A stretch of 6,470 bases of DNA from a virus, in the IMG/VR virus record IMGVR_UViG_3300029720_000150, positions 1 to 6,470 of that record; one strand, given 5' to 3'. The stretch's first letter is position 1. Each line of letters opens with the position of its first letter. Both the position numbers and the translations under genes were made by a program. The notes under the pieces are model-generated. The model was not told where the DNA came from. It did not search any database and was given only the letters and a program-made list of their open reading frames with translations. Shown piece after piece: positions 1 to 6,470 of the stretch.

Positions 1-89
1 ATTATAACTCTGCTGCTAATCAACGTAAGCGTTGGGAAGAAGCAGGTTTAAATCCTAACCTTATGATGAATGGTTCTGCTGGTTCTGTT
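1..89. repeat. Terminal redundancy of a circular contig (identical to 6382-6470)
   Basis: Base-by-base comparison shows 1-89 is identical to 6382-6470. The reading frame of the VP2-like gene is continuous across the implied junction. Confidence 0.95.
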
Positions 90-887
90 TCCGGTTCTGT
101 TCCTTCTACCGGTATGTCTAACTCTGGTGAAACTTTGGCTCAAGGTATTAATGTAGCAGGTTCTTCTGCTGCCCAAATGATTGCTCAACAGATGGATATT
201 AATGCTCAAAAAGATGTACGTTCTGCTGAGGTTCGAAAAGCTGAAGAAGAAGCTGATTATACCGGTCAGATGACAGAGTCCCAACGTATGCAGAATATGT
301 TTCTCTTGCAATCTTTGTCTGCCCAGACAAAGAATTGGGAATTAAAAAATATTTATCAAGAATTAGAAAATCAGTATGCAAAAGATTCTTTGGATGCTCG
401 TGTTGATTTGGTATCTGCACAAAACCAGTCATTAGCTAATCGTGCTTATTTAGATGCAATGAATGCTGCCCTTGCTGATACTCAAAATCGTATTGCAAAG
501 GTTAATTTGTCTTGGCTTCCTGCTGAAAAACAGGCTGGTTTAGCTAATGTTATTGCTCAGTCTGCTCTTTTTGCTGCTCAGCGTGGAATGTCTGAAGCTG
601 CTGCACGTATGTATGTCTCTTCTGCTGCTCTTAATTATGAGCAAAAAGCAGGTGTCAAGATAGATAATGATGTACGTTCAGCTACCAAACAGCTTTCTAT
701 TGATGCGACTAATGACGCTAGCCGTTGGACTCAACAAAAGTATGAGGATACTCAGTCTTCTCCTAATAAGTTATGGCGTTGGCTTGGTATCGATGGTTCT
801 TGGCTTCCTGCTGCAGGTGCTTATGCGTTTGGCAAATCTACGAAAGGTTTGCATGCTCCTAAGAAAGTTAAAGGATTCCATCCTTAA
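1..887 (+). CDS. Minor capsid / DNA pilot protein VP2-like, 3' portion (in frame from base 3; continues from 6246..6381 by circular wrap; full gene 1,023 nt, 340 aa)
   Basis: The frame is open from base 3 to TAA at 885-887. The ORF starting at 6246 is in the same frame once circularised (6246-6381 = -135, divisible by 3). The product has a Gly/Ala-rich hydrophobic N-terminus, then ...DYNSAANQRKRWEEAGLNPNLMM..., then an Ala/Gln-rich helical body, as in gokusho/alpavirus VP2 proteins. Codons are T-ending. It follows the capsid gene cluster. Confidence 0.8.
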   Translation, partial: YNSAANQRKRWEEAGLNPNLMMNGSAGSVSGSVPSTGMSNSGETLAQGINVAGSSAAQMIAQQMDINAQKDVRSAEVRKAEEEADYTGQMTESQRMQNMFLLQSLSAQTKNWELKNIYQELENQYAKDSLDARVDLVSAQNQSLANRAYLDAMNAALADTQNRIAKVNLSWLPAEKQAGLANVIAQSALFAAQRGMSEAAARMYVSSAALNYEQKAGVKIDNDVRSATKQLSIDATNDASRWTQQKYEDTQSSPNKLWRWLGIDGSWLPAAGAYAFGKSTKGLHAPKKVKGFHP

Positions 888-922
888 AATGGCTTATTAA
901 TCAACTTTTTGTATGCCATTTT
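886..922 (+). terminator. Hairpin overlapping the VP2 stop codon (8-bp stem AAAATGGC/GCCATTTT, 21-nt loop) followed by T-rich sequence; weak terminator or origin-type hairpin
   Basis: 886-893 aaaatggc is the exact reverse complement of 915-922 gccatttt. The loop 894-914 is ttattaatcaactttttgtat. The loop is large for an intrinsic terminator. Confidence 0.3.
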
Positions 923-939
923 TACTATTCATTATTATT

Positions 940-986
940 ATGCGTGCGTATTATTTATATATTATATATAGATTTTACGTACGCAT
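940..986. repeat. Inverted repeat ATGCGTGCGTA / TACGTACGCAT (10 of 11 complementary) flanking a 25-nt A/T-only loop inside a spacer of about 21% GC
   Basis: The arms are 940-950 and 976-986. The single mismatch would be a G-U wobble pair in RNA. Hand count of 921-1020 gives 21 G+C out of 100. Confidence 0.6.
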
Positions 987-1057
987 TTTATATATTTATG
1001 TACTCTCTTTAAAACTTTCCTATTGCAGCATACACTCATTAGTTTTCGTTAGTTTAA

Positions 1058-1065
1058 TACATTTG
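1058..1065 (+). promoter_or_regulatory. Candidate Bacteroidota -7 promoter element TAnnTTTG (TACATTTG) directly upstream of the hairpin-repeat block
   Basis: This is an exact match to the Bacteroides sigma-ABfr -7 consensus TAnnTTTG. No clean -33 TTTG lies at the expected spacing. The predicted start falls around 1070-1075, where tandem repeat copy 1 begins (1073). Confidence 0.3.
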
Positions 1066-1072
1066 TCTATAG

Positions 1073-1186
1073 ATTCGGCAGTGAACGGCACGACGTGCCC
1101 TGCCGCTTCTCATCTCAAAGTCCGCTTTTATTCGGCAGTGAACGGCACGAAGTGCCCTGCCGCTTCTTATCCCAAAGTCCTGCGTT
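1073..1186 (+). repeat. Two tandem 57-nt direct repeats, each containing a bulged hairpin CGGCAG-tgaac-GGCAC-ga(c/a)-GTGCC-CTGCCG
   Basis: Copy 1 is 1073-1129 and copy 2 is 1130-1186. The first 51 positions differ at 3 sites and the 3' tails diverge. Both stems (6 bp and 5 bp) are perfectly conserved. The only substitution inside the hairpin is in the 3-nt loop (gac versus gaa). Hand count for copy 1 is 32 G+C out of 57. Confidence 0.9.
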
Positions 1187-1220
1187 AGCCCACAATACCA
1201 TGAAAAACACTAGCCTTTTG

Positions 1221-1456
1221 CTTCTTTTGGGCAATGCCAAAAGAAGTGGGGTTTGGGGCAACGCCCCATAGACAGGAAACGCAGTTTCCGCTCCTCCCGC
1301 TTCCGGGTGACCGGAAGTAGGGTTATAGGGGCAAAGCCCCTAATCGCCTGTTATCATTAGTTATCATTAGTTATTGCCATACAGCAGGCAAATAGCCTGC
1401 CGAGTTATTATTCCTATAATAACGTATTAGAAAACGGTGTCTAATTTCCACCGTTT
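1221..1456 (+). other. GC-rich hairpin array (at least 8 stem-loops): candidate structured ncRNA or ssDNA cis-element (complementary-strand origin, packaging or integration site)
   Basis: Perfect stems read directly from the sequence are as follows. H1 1221-1246 (10 bp, loop GCAATG). H2 1254-1268 (6 bp, loop AAC). H3 1275-1289 (6 bp, loop GCA). H4 1300-1317 (7 bp, GTGA loop of GNRA type). H5 1326-1342 (7 bp, loop AAA). H6 1384-1400 (6 bp, loop AAATA). H7 1404-1423 (8 bp, loop TCCT). H8 1432-1456 (8 bp, 9-nt loop). Hand count of 1221-1340 gives 69 G+C out of 120, against about 35-42% in sampled coding stretches. No ORF of 60 aa or more lies on either strand. Confidence 0.6.
1350..1375. repeat. 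10-nt direct repeat GTTATCATTA, 2 copies plus a partial third (GTTATT); iteron-like
   Basis: Copies are at 1350-1359 and 1360-1369, with the partial copy at 1370-1375. They lie between hairpins H5 and H6. Confidence 0.8.
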
Positions 1457-1489
1457 CAGCAACCCCTAGTTTATCTACTGCTAAAGTGA

Positions 1490-1556
1490 CACCATTCCTT
1501 TGTCGCTTGCGAGGAACGTTCCTGTAGGTTCGTTCGTGCTAAACTTTTGAATGGTG
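1490..1556 (+). other. Long-range 8-bp helix (CACCATTC / GAATGGTG) enclosing the 12-nt perfect palindrome AGGAACGTTCCT
   Basis: 1490-1497 is the exact reverse complement of 1549-1556. The palindrome lies at 1512-1523. The element sits at the 3' edge of the structured block. Confidence 0.45.
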
Positions 1557-1656
1557 ATAATTTATGCACTTTAGTCTATATTGTAATATTAGAGTTTACA
1601 TTTCATGTGAAATGTTCTTAATATAAATAAAAATTCGTTAGCATAATGTCCCTTAT

Positions 1657-1688
1657 GTTGTAAATTCAAAAATATCTCTCTATATTTG
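1657..1688 (+). promoter_or_regulatory. Candidate Bacteroidota-type promoter (-33-like GTTG at 1657-1660; -7 TATATTTG at 1681-1688) for the 1741 ORF and downstream genes
   Basis: 1681-1688 is an exact TAnnTTTG match. A 3 of 4 match to TTTG lies 20 nt upstream. The site is in an AT-rich region about 50 nt before the next ATG. Confidence 0.4.
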
Positions 1689-1740
1689 CACTTGAATTCA
1701 GTTACTTAATATTCCTAATGTTATTGTCGTTTCATTTTAA

Positions 1741-2010
1741 ATGTTTTGGATTATGGAAAAAGTTATTTTAGATAGTGAACGCCCTTCTTTACTTGAAGGT
1801 GCATCCGATTTACGTTCATACGATTTCTTTAAAGTTATCGTTACTCAGCATGTTGATTCTGGAGTTCATACTTCACATTTAGCAGTTAGGACTGATTGTG
1901 TATCTGCTTTTATGGAGTCGGTCTATGATCTGTATGATAATGATACTGTTATTCAGTTTAATGGTATCTTTCAGCTTAGAGACCCTCGTTTCTGGTTTAC
2001 AATGGTTTAA
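1741..2010 (+). CDS. Hypothetical protein, 89 aa, acidic (alternative start ATG at 1753)
   Basis: The ORF runs from ATG to TAA. Its T-ending codon usage matches VP1 and VP4. It is on the same strand as all other genes, and I recognise no motif. Its size is in the range of phiX174 gene C and gokushovirus VP5, but no similarity could be verified. Confidence 0.65.
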   Translation: MFWIMEKVILDSERPSLLEGASDLRSYDFFKVIVTQHVDSGVHTSHLAVRTDCVSAFMESVYDLYDNDTVIQFNGIFQLRDPRFWFTMV

Positions 2011-2116: not shown

Positions 2117-2317
2117 ATGAATAAAGAAGTTATAAAGATTATTATTAAGGTGCTTATTTATGCTCTTGGATTGATAGGTACTTATTTTGGAGTATCAGCT
2201 ATGACTAGTTGTACTGTTCAGCGCAATTATGAGTCTAGTGGTCGTGGTACGGTTATTGTTTCCGATACTACTCATTTAGTTCATTCTGGTTCTTGGTTTT
2301 TTAAAAAAGTTCGGTGA
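2117..2317 (+). CDS. Small membrane-anchored protein or putative lipoprotein, 66 aa
   Basis: The N-terminus is MNKEVIK, followed by a hydrophobic span of about 21 residues (IIIKVLIYALGLIGTYFGVSA) and then M-T-S-C (Cys32), which resembles a lipobox. Codons are T-ending. The stop TGA (2315-2317) lies 2 nt before the rep ATG (2320), which suggests translational coupling. Confidence 0.65.
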   Translation: MNKEVIKIIIKVLIYALGLIGTYFGVSAMTSCTVQRNYESSGRGTVIVSDTTHLVHSGSWFFKKVR

Positions 2318-2319
2318 TT

Positions 2320-3807
2320 ATGAATAATACAACTCCTTGGATTTCTTGTTTTAAACCTGTTGGTATTAGAGATTGTTTTGGTCGTGTCCAAATGGTTGGT
2401 TGTGGTTCTTGTCCTGCTTGTCAAGAGCTTAAGCGTAATAGCTTGAGTAATCGTCTTGCTTTGGAAGAGCATAGAGCAAAATATTGCTCTTTTGTAACTT
2501 TGACTTATGACGAGGCTCATTTGCCCATTGTGGACGTTTCACCTTTGTTCTCTTCTTCTGATGGTGAGGTTGTTGATTTACTTCAAAATCATGATTTTAA
2601 TGAAGATTTCTCAACACCTTCTGTGGTTAATACTGAGGAGTTACGTAATAGTGTTATTTTATATAATAAACATCGTGCTTTTTATAAGGCTAATTATTCT
2701 GTGAATAGAAATGTTACTTATGAAGATAATCAAGTTGCGGTGCTTGTAAATAGGCATTTGCAGTTGTTCATTAAAAGATTTAGAAAATATGTCTCACAAA
2801 ATTACAATGAAAAGATACGTTACTACGCTGTTGGTGAATACGGAGTCCAGTCTTTGCGTCCGCATTGGCATATCTTATTTTTCTACTCATCGCCTCAGCT
2901 TGCAAGAGATTTTGAGGATGTCGTTCAGCTCGGATCATCATCCCGACCAATTCAGACCCCTGTTTTTCTTCGTTCACTCTGGAAGTTCGGTCACATTGAT
3001 TCTAAGCAGACTGACGGAAAAGCCTATTTTTACGTTTCATCGTATGTTAATAAGCCTTCTAATTTTCCCTATGTGCTTGAGATCCTTGCTCCACAACGTG
3101 CGTTTCACTCCAATTTCCTTGGAGAGATTTCTGAGAAAGAAGACATTAAAAAGTCTTTTCAAGACAGAGACTTTTCAAATCTCGGAAAAATTAATGTTAT
3201 CTCTTGGTCAGGCGACCAATATACTTACTCCGTTAGGCGGTCGCTTGTCGGTAGATTGTTACCGAGATATAGCTTCTCAGCTTGCGAGGATGACAGAATT
3301 ATATTTCGAAAACTTACGCTCTTTGCCGACAGTTTCGTCTTCAGAAAGTACGAGCAATTAGGTTCTGTTCTGAATTTAGCTTTGCATATTTTTAATGCTT
3401 GGTATTTTAAGAAGGACAATGAATTTGCTTCTCTGGCTTCGCTCTGTGCTTCTCAGTGCTTAGCTTGTTTGCATTCGGATTTGAAACTTTTATCTCCGCT
3501 TTGCTCTGTTCTTTACGCTTCTAAGCGTTTTGTTTCTGCTGCCGATTCTTTGGGTTTTGGTTTGCGTGATTATTATGATATTTACAAGTCTTATTATAAT
3601 TTTATTGAATATTCTAGACTTACGGATAATTTGTCTTTATGTCAGTTAGATCCACAATTTGCTTCTGCTTATTATGCTTCTGTTACTGATTTTGACACTT
3701 TGTCTTCTAGTATTGATTTTATTAATTGGTCTTGTTCTGTTAAAAATAAATTCCGTTCACGGATTAAACATAGACAGATAGCAGACCGTTATAAGTTTAA
3801 TATTTAA
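2320..3807 (+). CDS. Replication initiation protein VP4 (HUH endonuclease, phiX174 gene A family), 495 aa from ATG 2320 (the ORF track begins at GTG 2314)
   Basis: Motif 1 FVTLTYD is at 2491-2511. The HUH motif HWHILFF is at 2863-2883. The two-tyrosine motif 3 YVSSYVNK is at 3031-3054; compare phiX174 A protein YVAKYVNK. An N-terminal Cys cluster GCGSCPACQ is typical of microvirus VP4 proteins. Confidence 0.95.
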   Translation: MNNTTPWISCFKPVGIRDCFGRVQMVGCGSCPACQELKRNSLSNRLALEEHRAKYCSFVTLTYDEAHLPIVDVSPLFSSSDGEVVDLLQNHDFNEDFSTPSVVNTEELRNSVILYNKHRAFYKANYSVNRNVTYEDNQVAVLVNRHLQLFIKRFRKYVSQNYNEKIRYYAVGEYGVQSLRPHWHILFFYSSPQLARDFEDVVQLGSSSRPIQTPVFLRSLWKFGHIDSKQTDGKAYFYVSSYVNKPSNFPYVLEILAPQRAFHSNFLGEISEKEDIKKSFQDRDFSNLGKINVISWSGDQYTYSVRRSLVGRLLPRYSFSACEDDRIIFRKLTLFADSFVFRKYEQLGSVLNLALHIFNAWYFKKDNEFASLASLCASQCLACLHSDLKLLSPLCSVLYASKRFVSAADSLGFGLRDYYDIYKSYYNFIEYSRLTDNLSLCQLDPQFASAYYASVTDFDTLSSSIDFINWSCSVKNKFRSRIKHRQIADRYKFNI

Positions 3808-3819
3808 ATTTTATTTTTT

Positions 3820-5754
3820 ATGGCAAATCGTTCTAATGTTATGGGTTTACACGGCCTTAAAAATAAGCCGTCTAGAAACTCTTTTGATGTTTCTGCCCGA
3901 AATCTTTTTACCGCTAAAATCGGTGAACTCTTGCCTTGTGCCGTTTATGAAATGAACCCTGGTGATTCTATTCGTATTGACGCAAGTTATTTTACTCGTA
4001 CTGCTCCATTGCAGACTGCAGCATTCACTCGTCTTCGTGAGAATGTTCAGTTCTTTTTTGTGCCTTATTCTCAGCTTTGGAAGTATTTTAATACTCAAGT
4101 TTTGAATATGAGTACTAGTGCTTCTGGACAAGATGTTTCTCGTATCGCTACTTCCCCTTTTTCTAATGAAAAAGTTTCTACGGGTATGCCTTATGTTTCT
4201 TATTTTGCTTTGCATAGGTATTTATTTAACATGGGTCAGGCTGCTAATAATCAGTTAGGTACGGATTTCGAAGATAATTTCGCTAATTCTGTTTTTGATA
4301 ATAATGGCGAATTCCGTTGGGCTGCTTCTTCTAAGTTGCTTCAGTTGTTAGGTTATGGTCGTTTTGATTATCAGAATATGTCACCTGCTAATTTTGATCC
4401 TGTTACTGTTACTGGTATGTCACATCTTCCTAATGTGTCTATTTTCCGTTTGCTTGCTTACCAAAAAATTTGTAACGATCATTATCAGTTCCGTCAGTGG
4501 CAGGGATATGATGCATCTTTGTGTAATGTTGATTATGTAAAACCGTCTGGTTCGATGGATTTATCTCCTCAGCTTGATCAGATAAACTTTAGTACTGGCG
4601 AAAATGCTAACAGATTGAATTTTTTGGATTTGCGTTTTAGTAATCTTCCTTTAGATTATCTTAACGGTGTTCTTCCTACTGCTCAGTTTGGTTCTGAGAG
4701 TGTTGTTTCTATAGGTTCTGACCTTAACTCTCTTGATGGTGATTTGCTTCCTAATACTGAAGCTCACGCTAGTTCTGGTGGTTTAGTTGTTCGTCGTTAT
4801 AATAATAATAATGGTCAATGGCAAGATCGTATTCAAATCGGTGAGCTTACGCCGATTCCTAGTGATACTCATCTTGAGGCTTTTTACAGAGATCAATCGT
4901 CTGATAGAGATGTTAATTTTACTTTTGATATCTCAAACGCTTCTTTCTCTGGTGCTGTTTCTATTGCTGCTCTTCGTCAGGCTTATGCAGCTCAGAAGTA
5001 TAAGGAGATTCAGTTAGCTAATGATGTGGATTTTGTTAGTCAGATTGAAGCACATTTTGGTGTTAAGCCTAAGCATGCTGATGATACATCTTATTTTATT
5101 GGTGGTTCGTCTTCTATGATTGATATTAATCCTATTGTCAATCAGAATTTGTCTGGTGATGCGCAAGCTAATTATAAAGCTTCTCCTATTGGCAATGGTT
5201 CTTCAAAGATTAAGTTTACTGCTGATACTTATGGTGTTGTTATGGGTATTTATCGTTGTACCCCTGTACTTGATTATGCTCATATTGGTATTGATAGAAC
5301 TCTTTGTAAGACTGATGCGTCTGATTTCGTTATTCCAGAGATGGATAGTATTGGTATGCAGCAAAATTATCTTTTTGAAGTTCAAGCTCCATCTTTTAAT
5401 TCAGTAAATCATGGTTTTGTTGATGATGAAAATTTTGCTCAGTCTTATGGATACGCTCCTCGTTACTCTGAGTATAAAACTAATTATGACAAGTATAATG
5501 GTGATTTTTGTTTCACTCTTGATTCTTGGGTTACCGGTCTTCCTGCTAATATGATTGATGAGATTTGTCGTCACAATCTTTCATCTATGCAGATTGCACC
5601 AGAGCTTTTTAATTGTCGTCCGTCACTTTGTAATAGTATTTTTGTAAATCAAAATAACTATTTGGTTTCTGATGATAAACTTTATGTAGGTATGGTTAAT
5701 ATGGCTTATGTTACTCGTAACTTGAGTCGTTACGGACTTCCTTATTCTAACTAA
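3820..5754 (+). CDS. Major capsid protein VP1 (Microviridae F-protein family), 644 aa
   Basis: The N-terminal region is ...SRNSFDVS...LFTAKIGELLPCAVYEMNPGDSIRIDASYFTRTAPLQTAAFTRLRENVQFFFVPYSQLW. The C-terminal region contains ...GYAPRYSEYKT.... Both are characteristic of microvirus capsid jelly-roll proteins. It is the largest ORF, with strong T-ending codon bias. Confidence 0.95.
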   Translation: MANRSNVMGLHGLKNKPSRNSFDVSARNLFTAKIGELLPCAVYEMNPGDSIRIDASYFTRTAPLQTAAFTRLRENVQFFFVPYSQLWKYFNTQVLNMSTSASGQDVSRIATSPFSNEKVSTGMPYVSYFALHRYLFNMGQAANNQLGTDFEDNFANSVFDNNGEFRWAASSKLLQLLGYGRFDYQNMSPANFDPVTVTGMSHLPNVSIFRLLAYQKICNDHYQFRQWQGYDASLCNVDYVKPSGSMDLSPQLDQINFSTGENANRLNFLDLRFSNLPLDYLNGVLPTAQFGSESVVSIGSDLNSLDGDLLPNTEAHASSGGLVVRRYNNNNGQWQDRIQIGELTPIPSDTHLEAFYRDQSSDRDVNFTFDISNASFSGAVSIAALRQAYAAQKYKEIQLANDVDFVSQIEAHFGVKPKHADDTSYFIGGSSSMIDINPIVNQNLSGDAQANYKASPIGNGSSKIKFTADTYGVVMGIYRCTPVLDYAHIGIDRTLCKTDASDFVIPEMDSIGMQQNYLFEVQAPSFNSVNHGFVDDENFAQSYGYAPRYSEYKTNYDKYNGDFCFTLDSWVTGLPANMIDEICRHNLSSMQIAPELFNCRPSLCNSIFVNQNNYLVSDDKLYVGMVNMAYVTRNLSRYGLPYSN

Positions 5755-5768
5755 TTAATTTATATATT

Positions 5769-6197
5769 ATGAGTATTAGAAATTATAAAACTAAGTGTTA
5801 TATACCTCCTATTGGTGAGGATTTGCAGCACGACATTTGTGAAGAAGGTATTTCTTTTCATTCAGATATTACACTTCTTAGTCGTCTTTCTGATATGCGT
5901 CTTTCTCAGTCGCTTATGGATGGTATTTTATCTCGTTTCTCTCAGGTCAAGGATACTATGCCTCAAGAGCTTTCCGAGAAGTTTGCTTCTTTGGATGATT
6001 TCAAGAAGATGGATTTCACCGATTCACGATATTTGCAATCTCTTTCGGATAAGAAGTCTGCTTTGTCTTCATTCATTGATGATTATGATAAGAAACTTTC
6101 TGAAATGAATGATTCTCTGGAAAAGTCTAAACTTGCTTCTGCTCGTAAGAATTTGGATAATTATATTTTGTCTATGTTCTCTGATGAGGATAAATAA
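5769..6197 (+). CDS. Hypothetical acidic, predicted helical protein, 142 aa; possible internal scaffolding (VP3-like) protein
   Basis: This is a clean ORF 14 nt after VP1, lying between VP1 and VP2. It is rich in Asp, Glu, Ser and Leu and its size resembles gokushovirus VP3. The functional call rests only on position, size and composition. Confidence 0.75.
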   Translation: MSIRNYKTKCYIPPIGEDLQHDICEEGISFHSDITLLSRLSDMRLSQSLMDGILSRFSQVKDTMPQELSEKFASLDDFKKMDFTDSRYLQSLSDKKSALSSFIDDYDKKLSEMNDSLEKSKLASARKNLDNYILSMFSDEDK

Positions 6198-6202
6198 TTT
6201 AT

Positions 6203-6227
6203 GCCCCCTTTTTAGGGGGCTTTGTTT
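6203..6227 (+). terminator. Intrinsic-terminator-like hairpin GCCCCC-ttttta-GGGGGC followed by TTTGTTT
   Basis: The stem 6203-6208 / 6215-6220 is an all-G:C perfect 6-bp helix. The loop is 6 nt and a T-rich tract follows at 6221-6227. It lies 5 nt after the stop codon of the 142-aa ORF. Confidence 0.6.
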
Positions 6228-6245: not shown

Positions 6246-6470
6246 ATGTCTGCTGTTCTTGGTGCTGCTGCTCTTACTGCTGGTGCTAGTCTTGCTGGTT
6301 CACTTTTTGGTGCTAATAAACAGGATAAAAATGCACAAGCACAAAGAGAGTGGCAAGAAAAAATGTATTTGATGGACAGGGATTATAACTCTGCTGCTAA
6401 TCAACGTAAGCGTTGGGAAGAAGCAGGTTTAAATCCTAACCTTATGATGAATGGTTCTGCTGGTTCTGTT
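6246..6470 (+). CDS. Minor capsid / DNA pilot protein VP2-like, 5' portion (runs off the window; 6382-6470 duplicates 1-89)
   Basis: ATG 6246 is the first ATG after the in-frame TAG at 6213-6215. The translation is MSAVLGAAALTAGASLAGSLFGANKQDKNAQAQREWQEKMYLMDRDYNSAANQRKRWEEAGLNPNLMMNGSAGSV. It continues without a break into the 1..887 ORF. Confidence 0.8.
   Translation, partial: MSAVLGAAALTAGASLAGSLFGANKQDKNAQAQREWQEKMYLMDRDYNSAANQRKRWEEAGLNPNLMMNGSAGSV
6382..6470. repeat. Terminal redundancy of a circular contig (identical to 1-89)
   Basis: All 89 nt are identical to the window start. Confidence 0.95.

Follow-up and report, generated by a model that had tools for sequence, protein, structure and literature searches.

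A hairpin-rich non-coding region in a gut microvirus genome as a candidate complementary-strand origin

The 6,470-nucleotide (nt) stretch of DNA analysed here, hereafter the window (IMG/VR record IMGVR_UViG_3300029720_000150), is a complete microvirus genome in which every gene lies on the + strand. The first 89 nt of the window (1-89) recur exactly at 6382-6470. This terminal duplication is the assembly overlap of a circular genome, and the circle is 6381 nt. Between the end of the pilot-like gene and an early open reading frame (ORF) of 85 amino acids (aa) there is a long gene-free region, which is the subject of this report (Table 1). Its GC-rich core, 1073-1380, is probably a complementary-strand origin resembling that of phage G4, and possibly a plus-strand origin too, placed within a cis-acting region that would also comprise a terminator, a dif-like site and a promoter. 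Gut microviruses are abundant, but almost none are cultured, and their origins and the conversion from single to double strand are unknown outside the phiX174/G4 group. The region offers a concrete candidate origin for these viruses.

Table 1. Genes of the window and elements of the non-coding region, in window coordinates.
Feature	Position	Strand	Remarks
Pilot-like gene, 340 aa	stop at 887	+	spans the window ends (circle junction)
Whole non-coding region (putative control region)	888-1752		from pilot stop (887) to start of 85-aa ORF (1753)
Hairpin AAAATGGC...GCCATTTT	886-922	+	overlaps the pilot stop codon; inverted repeat I8
Long hairpin with 23-nt arms (940-986), then T tract TTTTATATATTT	940-997	+	inverted repeat I1
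Motif GCATACACTCATTAG, then 10-nt repeats TCATTAGTTT TCGTTAGTTT	1028-1055	+	5' iteron-like set; direct repeat D4 with 1354-1372
57-nt tandem repeat	1073-1180	+	1.9 copies, 94% identity between copies
Nested hairpins of the 57-nt units	1077-1104 and 1134-1161	+	one per unit
DNA mini-hairpin GCGTTAGC	1182-1189	+
Unpaired 23-mer CAATACCATGAAAAACACTAGCC	1193-1215	+	near-invariant
Hairpin Pa	1220-1247	+	10-11 bp stem, invariant loop GCAATG
Three hairpins	1254-1318	+	TGGGGC-AAC-GCCCCA (1254-1268), GGAAAC-GCA-GTTTCC (1275-1289), GCTTCCGG-GTGA-CCGGAAGT (1299-1318)
Conserved motif GGGTTATAGGGG-loop-CCCCTAATCGCC	1320-1348	+	contains hairpin 1326-1342
Four 10-nt iteron-like repeats TAATCGCCTG TTATCATTAG TTATCATTAG TTATTGCCAT	1341-1380	+
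Three further hairpins	1384-1456	+	1384-1400, 1404-1423, 1432-1456
Long-range hairpin	1482-1564	+	arms 1482-1497 and 1549-1564; inverted repeat I5; DNA fold z = -2.7
Hairpin ACATTTC-ATGT-GAAATGT	1598-1615	+
dif-like site CGTTAGCATAA / TGTCCC / TTATGTTGTAA	1636-1663		11+6+11 nt
Promoter-like TATATTTG, then conserved block GCACTTGAATTCAGTTACTT	1681-1707	+	TATATTTG matches the Bacteroides -7 box TAnnTTTG
85-aa early ORF	start 1753	+	conserved start
66-aa ORF	2117-2317	+
Rep	2314-3807	+	PF23343, phrog_942
Major capsid protein	3820-5754	+	PF02305, phrog_514
142-aa ORF	5769-6197	+

An initial annotation of the window, made from the letters alone, had drawn attention to an ORF-free gap ending at 1740. 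The gap is real and slightly longer than proposed. Because the conserved start of the downstream gene is 1753 and not 1741, the region extends to 1752, which gives 865 nt, or 13.6% of the 6381-nt circle. The much shorter intergenic gaps elsewhere, of 106, 12, 14 and 48 nt, were verified, and so were the three zones of base composition, with a GC content of 21.0% (921-1020), 54.9% (1073-1340, earlier put at about 57%) and 23.2% (1560-1740), as compared with 36.3% in the remaining genome. The same genome has been assembled five times (L083-L087; L numbers are used here for the contigs compared), from four human-gut samples. All five contigs are 100% identical to the window across the region, which disposes of the suspicion that it is a product of chimeric assembly.

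The region is non-coding. Between 888 and 1740 just three ORFs reach 40 aa, at 913-1188 (+ strand, 91 aa), 1095-1271 (+ strand, 58 aa) and 1115-1261 (- strand, 48 aa). The stretch 860-1760 has 14 ORFs of 20 aa or more. Followed in the related microviruses L088, L091, L001 and L022, none of them was intact in all four; L001 and L022 have frameshifts or stops in all 14, and the majority are interrupted in L088 or L091 as well. The ORF at 913-1188 was therefore rejected as a gene, being broken in relatives like every other ORF of at least 20 aa. A mini-ORF opened by ATGAAAAAC and resembling a signal peptide was also discarded, as differences of 2, 4 or 6 nt in the stem arms put it in different frames in different relatives. 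Gene callers found zero genes in the 865-nt gap in each of the five assemblies, and should indeed place no ORFs there. Most likely the region is cis-acting DNA, neither a gene nor a structured RNA.

No other part of the genome comes near the region in degree of structure. When 888-1740 is folded as DNA, the z-score (z) is -10, and in a genome-wide scan with 150-nt windows those spanning 1051-1575 have z-scores of -3.4 to -6.2, compared with -0.46 ± 1.28 for coding DNA. The initial annotation had suggested a search for covariation in related microviruses, and the hairpins do co-vary in two alignments, A2 with 32 sequences and A3 with 14 sequences. In A2, 97.5% of the cells are paired and 77 cells are changed on both sides; the covariation score was not reached in any of 500 shuffles. 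In the seven helices of A3 the paired fraction is 99.4%, and both sides have changed in nine pairs. In the cleanly aligned helices every change is from Watson-Crick to Watson-Crick pair, with zero wobble intermediates. The co-varying helices include some of only 2-3 bp, closed by C-G and capped by GNNA or GNA loops (xC-GNNA-Gy, C-GGYA-G and C-GGA-G), and most of the loops (GTTA, GCTA, GCCA, GGTA and GGCA) are not RNA-type GNRA loops. Such mini-helices are of DNA type, and the core is likely to work as DNA rather than as RNA. Loop classes derived from minimum-free-energy folds were uninformative, as the energy model forms no mini-hairpins of 2-3 bp, and the mini-hairpins were counted by direct motif counts. 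In 35 genomes the motifs occur at 5.45 per kb on the + strand of the non-coding regions, 0.97 per kb on the - strand of these and 0.7-1.2 per kb elsewhere, an enrichment of about 5-fold on the viral strand. The corresponding numbers in the non-coding regions of the family are 162 on the + strand versus 29 on the - strand.

The GC-rich core begins with the 57-nt tandem repeat. Each unit forms a hairpin with an outer stem GGCAG/CTGCC, a 5-nt internal loop TGAAC, an inner stem GGCAC/GTGCC and a triloop GAC or GAA. In relatives this nested architecture is kept while the sequence is replaced: the outer stem of 5 bp, the 5-nt internal loop on the 5' side and the inner stem with its C-G-closed G-N-A triloop are retained, with double changes to GGTCG/CGACC and GGTTC/GAACC in L001, and to GTGTC/GACAC with TGCC-GTA-GGCA in L040 and L048. 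The repeat is single-copy in L001, L022 and L036. It is also where assemblers break contigs. The contigs L088 and L091 end inside or next to it (window 1053-1237), and when they were treated as circular these ends mimicked deletions of the core, which were recognised as artefacts.

Downstream of the repeat lie the mini-hairpin, the 23-mer and hairpin Pa. The outer pair of the mini-hairpin is C-G in 20 and G-C in 12 of 32 relatives and never unpaired, and the inner pair is always C-G; the stem is thus CC..GG in 20 and GC..GC in 12 sequences, with no other form. Only these two stems are reported to form mini-hairpin DNA (PMC13037366). At the same position L041 has the triloop form GCGAAGC. Within the 23-mer, ATGAAAAACACTAGC is invariant across the 32 sequences of A2, and the 23-mer is retained with small changes in the short forms L004 and L007. 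In Pa, 97% of the cells are paired, seven pairs change on both sides and none on one side only, and 0 of 500 shuffles reach the score; the hairpin is found even in L008, a 3984-nt microvirus from Ciona gut. Of the three hairpins that follow, the one with the stem CTTCCG/CGGAAG co-varies in the family (A3 helix 6), and the middle ones are swapped for other small hairpins in other classes. The conserved motif at 1320-1348 is found in 37 microvirus contigs, and the stem inside it co-varies between invariant flanks (A3 helix 7). The core ends with the iteron-like repeats, for which Tandem Repeats Finder reports a period of 10, 2.5 copies and 100% match at 1350-1374. In most relatives, too, GTTATC-like repeats come after the conserved motif.

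Two pattern scans of IMG/VR yielded about 45 contigs of microvirus size that carry the core, and in these the core element always lies within an ORF-free gap downstream of the pilot gene. The gap measures 450-1600 nt in most complete genomes and reaches from the pilot gene to small ORFs or to Rep. Sub-modules are common to pig-gut microviruses and the Ciona-gut microvirus. The region is a feature of a large gut-microvirus clade and not peculiar to this genome. The related microvirus L001 (NZ_CP050055.1, 6313 nt) aligns over the whole region. In RefSeq it is labelled "Pseudomonas aeruginosa strain LIUYANG-A plasmid unnamed2", but it is actually a complete microvirus of the clade, with a capsid protein 79% and a Rep 86% identical to those of the window, and probably represents contamination in the sequencing, not a plasmid of Pseudomonas.

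The region evolves more slowly than third codon positions. Between L088 and the window the non-coding blocks are 91-93.5% identical, and the third codon positions of the capsid, Rep and 142-aa ORF genes 76-88%. For L001 the core (1190-1375) is 89% identical and the third codon positions 64-73%; the blocks on either side of the core reach 57-73%, with islands of sharp conservation in them. A module of about 55 nt (1191-1247) retains 90-100% nt identity among viruses with only 25-60% identity in the capsid and 25-36% in Rep. Stem variants of Pa do not track capsid similarity, as L052, with a capsid 28% identical, has the stem of L001 (79%); this decoupling points to recombinational exchange or repeated convergence. 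The argument that retention of so much DNA implies a function has thus been borne out, in that the DNA is non-coding, kept and selected. The converse possibility, that close relatives lack the region, fails, since every relative examined keeps it. The module could also serve to recognise and group microvirus contigs.

The elements on the 5' side of the core include two hairpins. The one that overlaps the pilot stop codon has an RNA fold of -8.7 kcal/mol (z = -3.3), and in the alignment GGC/GCC of its stem is replaced by the compensatory GAC/GTC in L001 and L022. The second, a long one at 940-986, folds as RNA with -23.6 kcal/mol (z = -4.7) and has G.T wobbles at differing positions among relatives. 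Together with its T tract it accounts for most of the 21% GC zone, and we infer that it is the terminator of the late operon. A hairpin with a T run is found upstream of the core in several other classes as well, in some of which the hairpin is GC-rich with alternating purines and pyrimidines. In a scan for sigma-70 promoters and terminators, sites were no more frequent than in shuffles. The motif ACAYTNAT(T)AG of the 5' iteron-like set was counted 11 times in the non-coding regions when the + strand was read and never on their - strand, compared with 5 times in the other 192 kb.

On the 3' side the three hairpins at 1384-1456 have a DNA fold of -18.7 kcal/mol (z = -6.3), and ACGGTG/CACCGT is replaced by the compensatory TCGGTG/CACCGA in L001 and L088. 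The first two of them are deleted in L001 and L022 and are hence dispensable there. Islands inside the long-range hairpin, e.g., GTCGCTTGCGAGGAACGTT, are conserved in L001 and L022, and the hairpin at 1598-1615 is kept as CATTTCACGTGAAAC in L001 and in class III viruses. The sequence at 1681-1707, which is conserved in L088 and L091 and has similar counterparts in L004 and L146, might be an early promoter followed by a 5' leader, to judge from its -7 box.

The palindrome at 1636-1663 has the make-up of a dif site, with two 11-nt arms, inner ATAA/TTAT and a 6-nt spacer, and is the sole exact match in the window to the dif core ATAA-N6-TTATGT. In 37 genomes (the 35 in which mini-hairpins were counted plus L088 and L091) the dif core occurs at 0.96 per kb in non-coding regions versus 0.089 per kb elsewhere, an 11-fold difference. 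Relatives of classes I and III have conserved the site in their non-coding region in the form TGTTAACATAA-YGTCCC-TTATGTT; dif-like variants with the spacers CCGGTA or TAGACG, some of them on the other strand, are found in other classes. Of the 11 positions of the right arm, 8-9 agree with the XerD arm of E. coli dif. These features suggest that the site may be used by Xer recombinases, and its wide distribution in the clade bears on the question of integration versus mere multimer resolution.

Two other arrangements of such sites were observed. L040 has two dif-like sites in direct orientation, 121 nt apart (+288 and +409 from the core). In class II viruses (L082:6420-6510) they form an inverted repeat of about 28 nt, which may fold to a forked hairpin on the single strand, recalling the attP of CTX phage.

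Integrated forms were sought in several ways. The top 120 capsid homologues are all on contigs of at most 12 kb. A scan of 185,579 bacterial genomes with the core-element pattern, an indirect search as regards dif, gave no host copy or prophage but only one mis-binned microvirus contig and one chance match. A metagenome scan with a pattern of 14 specified bases was too unspecific; the matches listed were mostly due to chance, and no integrated form was among them. The 22.5-kb metagenome contig behind L146 matches L048 exactly and wraps round, and is a concatemer and not a prophage. As no integrated form was found, the dif-like site may, in the manner of cer, act in the resolution of replicative-form multimers and not in integration of the phage. 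The mis-binned contig, L082 (CAVBFV010000077.1, 11.3 kb, of which 8 kb was read), is a microvirus with the full core that has been placed in a Lachnospiraceae metagenome-assembled genome, which is either a binning error or a hint at the host.

Microviruses package the coding-sense strand. The core is non-coding and intergenic, and since all genes are on the + strand its structure is read on the packaged strand; a mini-hairpin of the GCGNNAGC/GCGNAGC type is part of it. From the absence of coding, the conservation, the strand-specific co-varying structure and the motifs present, we infer the functions of the region as follows. After entry, the single-stranded genome would be coated by single-stranded DNA-binding protein. 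On the packaged strand the core would fold into a row of short and very stable hairpins, with GCGTTAGC mini-hairpins and stems capped by G-N-A or G-N-N-A framing the unpaired 23-mer and the invariant-loop hairpin. These hairpins would resist melting and present a fixed landmark, at which a host enzyme could prime the synthesis of the complementary strand. The enzyme might be primase, as for G4, St-1 and alpha3, or RNA polymerase, as for the Ff phages and ssoA plasmids. The adjacent 10-nt iterons and invariant motifs may also hold the Rep nick site, i.e., the plus-strand origin. Upstream, the long hairpin and its T tract would end the late operon, and downstream the dif-like XerC/XerD-type site would serve for integration or for resolving multimers of the replicative form, followed by a promoter that would drive the early operon. 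Its position, with a terminator-like hairpin on one side and a promoter-like box on the other, probably places the core outside the transcription units.

A bolder proposal can be made tentatively, as possible but short of probable. The core may be a host-directed "origin cassette" of DNA mini-hairpins, a priming signal on single-stranded DNA in gut bacteria, which is exchanged by recombination among microviruses with as little as 25% protein identity and held at 90-100% nt identity by the host enzyme for which it is the signal. If so, a complementary-strand origin would for the first time be defined in microviruses other than those of E. coli; it could then indicate the host range of thousands of uncultured gut microviruses and supply a part for single-stranded DNA vectors.

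Several observations weigh against the core being a complementary-strand origin in the setting described. Beyond the octamer GCGTTAGC there is no sequence homology to the origins of G4 and alpha3; blastn-short gave only chance matches of 10-15 nt (E >= 1.9), none of them in the origin regions. The enrichment of mini-hairpins is a family-level statistic based on related, non-independent genomes, and in the window alone strict C-GN(N)A-G hairpins are modest in number, two with stems of at least 3 bp plus the mini-hairpin. The strand asymmetry would also be expected from an RNA made from the + strand. Not all parts are essential, as Pa is missing in L004 and L007 and two of the downstream hairpins are missing in L001. 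The terminator and the promoter that bracket the core are themselves predictions, and the full Bacteroides -33/-7 promoter pattern is not significant in the region. Neither an integrated prophage nor a host attB was found in the scans described above. This last result also favours a different view of the 1636-1663 palindrome, namely that it is the operator of a dimeric regulator of the early promoter about 20 nt downstream and not a Xer site, and the inverted repeat AACATAA-N6-TTATGTT does lie just upstream of the promoter-like box at 1681-1688. An operator is nevertheless doubtful, given that the arm lengths, the 6-nt spacer and the inner ATAA/TTAT fit the dif core, that the use of dif-like sites is known in microviruses, and that no DNA-binding protein was recognised among the small ORFs.

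For the core itself, the alternative that comes closest is that it is mainly a plus-strand (rolling-circle) origin, where Rep would bind the 10-nt iterons and nick the Pa loop GCAATG or the 23-mer. Iteron binding combined with nicking in the element is the mode of the circular Rep-encoding single-stranded DNA (CRESS) viruses and of rolling-circle plasmids. The invariant loop on a co-varying stem would suit such a role, as would the period-10 iterons adjoining the hairpin, the second iteron set upstream and the location just upstream of the Rep operon, and nick sites are in general often conserved across very divergent Reps. However, L004 and L007 are without Pa even though their Reps resemble those of Pa-bearing viruses, the iteron sequences vary among viruses whereas the core does not, and a nick site would need no array of tiny hairpins capped by GNA or GNNA. 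There is also no CTTGATA and no significant match to the 30-nt origin of phiX174 (CAACTTGATATTAATAACACTATAGACCAC), for which the best match in the genome is 18/30, the maximum also reached in shuffles; the resemblance of AAAACACTAGCC to AATAACACTATAGACC was rejected as not significant. A candidate Rep nick site is found in the capsid gene, where the 11-mer TTGATATTAAT at 5119-5129 (codons M-I-D-I-N) reproduces the core of the phiX174/G4 plus-strand origin without mismatch, nick site included; relatives whose capsids are as little as about 55% identical have the same 11-mer, a conservation that is inseparable from coding constraint. We consider it unlikely that the core is mainly a plus-strand origin, but such an origin could coexist with a complementary-strand origin, as in the intergenic region of the Ff phages. 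It is much less likely that the core is transcribed from the + strand into a structured non-coding RNA, be it a small RNA, a ribozyme or a leader. An RNA would account for the co-varying helices and the strand-specific structure, and RNAalifold closes the hairpins with a helix UAGCCU/AGGUUA containing an invariant G.U pair. Yet the key helices of 2-3 bp with triloops or non-GNRA loops are weak as RNA and very stable as DNA, the well-aligned helices are without wobble intermediates, and the core sits between the terminator-like hairpin and the promoter-like box. Rfam covariance models gave zero matches in 888-1752, even at E <= 10, and ARAGORN found no tRNA or tmRNA in the window. Seven related genomes likewise gave no tRNA. 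The least probable explanation, to which we give hardly any weight, is that the region is a horizontally acquired or mobile insert, such as a cassette or an element resembling miniature inverted-repeat transposable elements, or else junk that the phage tolerates without using it. Similar direct repeats (TCATTAGTT) stand on either side of the core, at 1036-1055 and 1350-1374, modules are 90-100% identical in very divergent microviruses and the stem variants ignore capsid similarity, so exchange by recombination is suggested. Against an insert stand the same position in every relative examined, the evolution slower than at synonymous sites and the compensatory changes that preserve the hairpins. 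A host-derived insert, which the initial annotation had raised, was rejected, as there is no copy in the bacterial genomes scanned save the mis-binned contig and none in plasmids, where the sole match was the mislabelled microvirus.

Outside the region, the 48-nt gap that separates the pilot gene from the 142-aa ORF holds a GC-rich, terminator-like hairpin followed by a T run (GCCCCCTTTTTAGGGGGC TTTGTTT) at 6203-6220, the second most structured spot in the genome (z about -3.4).

In other gut contigs, of jumbo-phage size (199-295 kb), an ORF-free repeat of about 800 nt is present in 2-3 copies that are 83-93% identical (L038:1067-1882 and 3789-4632, and also in L013, L027 and L025). These repeats contain GGGTTATAGGGG-hairpin-CCCCTAATCGC as in the microvirus core. 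The sharing of GGGTTATAGGGG..CCCCTAAT is probably coincidental, as the pattern is half palindromic and nothing further is shared. Rfam gave zero families at the sites of the shared motif in 13 large phage contigs, and the neighbouring ORFs were without Pfam match. The repeats could be a large non-coding element that has not been described before.

When it comes to known systems, the claim that nothing like this region has been described for microviruses does not stand. Long or hairpin-rich intergenic regions are not new for the Microviridae. Kimoto and Hirao have described GCGNNAGC and GCGNAGC as "mini-hairpin DNA", with a melting temperature of 69.5 °C for GCGTTAGC, and point out that G4 carries GCGAAAGC, and St-1 and alpha3 GCGTTAGC, where primase starts complementary-strand synthesis; these phages have hairpin-containing intergenic complementary-strand origins with the same mini-hairpin (PMC13037366). 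In G4, GCGAAAGC is found at 3977, inside the annotated "RNA primer of replication" (3970-3997), and in alpha3 the octamer is found in the G-H intergenic region (L092:5048). Further precedents are the dif-like sites upstream of Rep in Bacteroidetes microvirus prophages (PMC3091885), the intergenic hairpins of small microviruses (PMC9865509) and a stretch between H and A in alpha3. In the record of this phage (L092, X60322) that stretch comprises 758 nt (1-758), with no annotated feature and no ORF of more than 77 aa.

The intergenic region of the Ff phages (M13/f1/fd), which the initial annotation had named as the closest analogue, is a good functional analogy, with its array of hairpins on the packaged strand beside other cis-acting sites. 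Both are long non-coding stretches of the viral strand with several cis-acting hairpins, beside a terminator and replication genes. However, the virus families are unrelated, there is no sequence similarity, and nothing similar to the Ff minus-strand origin, which is an RNA polymerase promoter mimic, was detected in the region. To our knowledge, microviruses, unlike the Ff phages, need no separate packaging hairpin. The single-strand origins of plasmids (ssoA, ssoU, ssoT and the ssi of RSF1010) are also comparable, being orientation-dependent, highly structured, non-coding stretches of 150-300 nt with short conserved unpaired motifs, which are cassette-like and common to replicons with unrelated Reps. 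The ssiA of RSF1010 even holds a CCGAAGG mini-hairpin (PMC13037366). The region differs from these in having no sequence similarity to plasmids, and CS-6 of ssoA (TAGCGT in the terminal loop) is absent, not even TAGCG being found in 888-1752.

The palindrome at 1636-1663 shares the 11+6+11 layout and the inner ATAA/TTAT with the sites of elements that exploit Xer (BMV1-7, enterogokushoviruses and the CTX/VGJ phages) and with the plasmid sites cer and psi. The dif-motif of the enterogokushoviruses has been proven experimentally (PMC7062461). As in the Bacteroidetes microvirus prophages, the site is located in non-coding DNA upstream of Rep and is conserved in relatives. It differs from those of the Xer-exploiting elements in that the left arm nearly mirrors the right arm and in the spacers CCGGTA and TAGACG of its relatives. 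In the reekeekee- and roodoodoo-microviruses, intergenic hairpins with compensatory substitutions have been tentatively tied to minus-strand initiation (PMC9865509). These are one or two hairpins in 4-kb genomes, as opposed to 13 or more hairpins and other motifs in 865 nt in the present case.

In the literature searched, no description of this element family was found, and the family itself appears to be undescribed as regards its size, its mini-hairpin architecture, the ultra-conserved 50-nt module common to highly divergent gut microviruses and the fixed order of terminator, core, dif-like site and promoter. The nearest counterparts of the core are the origins of the Bullavirinae, which lie between F and G in G4 and between G and H in St-1, alpha3 and phiK. 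Like these it is a non-coding, strand-specific cluster of stable hairpins on the packaged strand with a GCGNNAGC mini-hairpin, the octamer being identical to that of alpha3. The G4 origin, however, has three hairpins in about 135 nt, whereas the core has eight or more in about 300 nt, together with an invariant unpaired 23-mer and iterons, both lacking in G4. The best-supported view is that the core would be functionally like the origins of G4, St-1 and alpha3 but not homologous to them.

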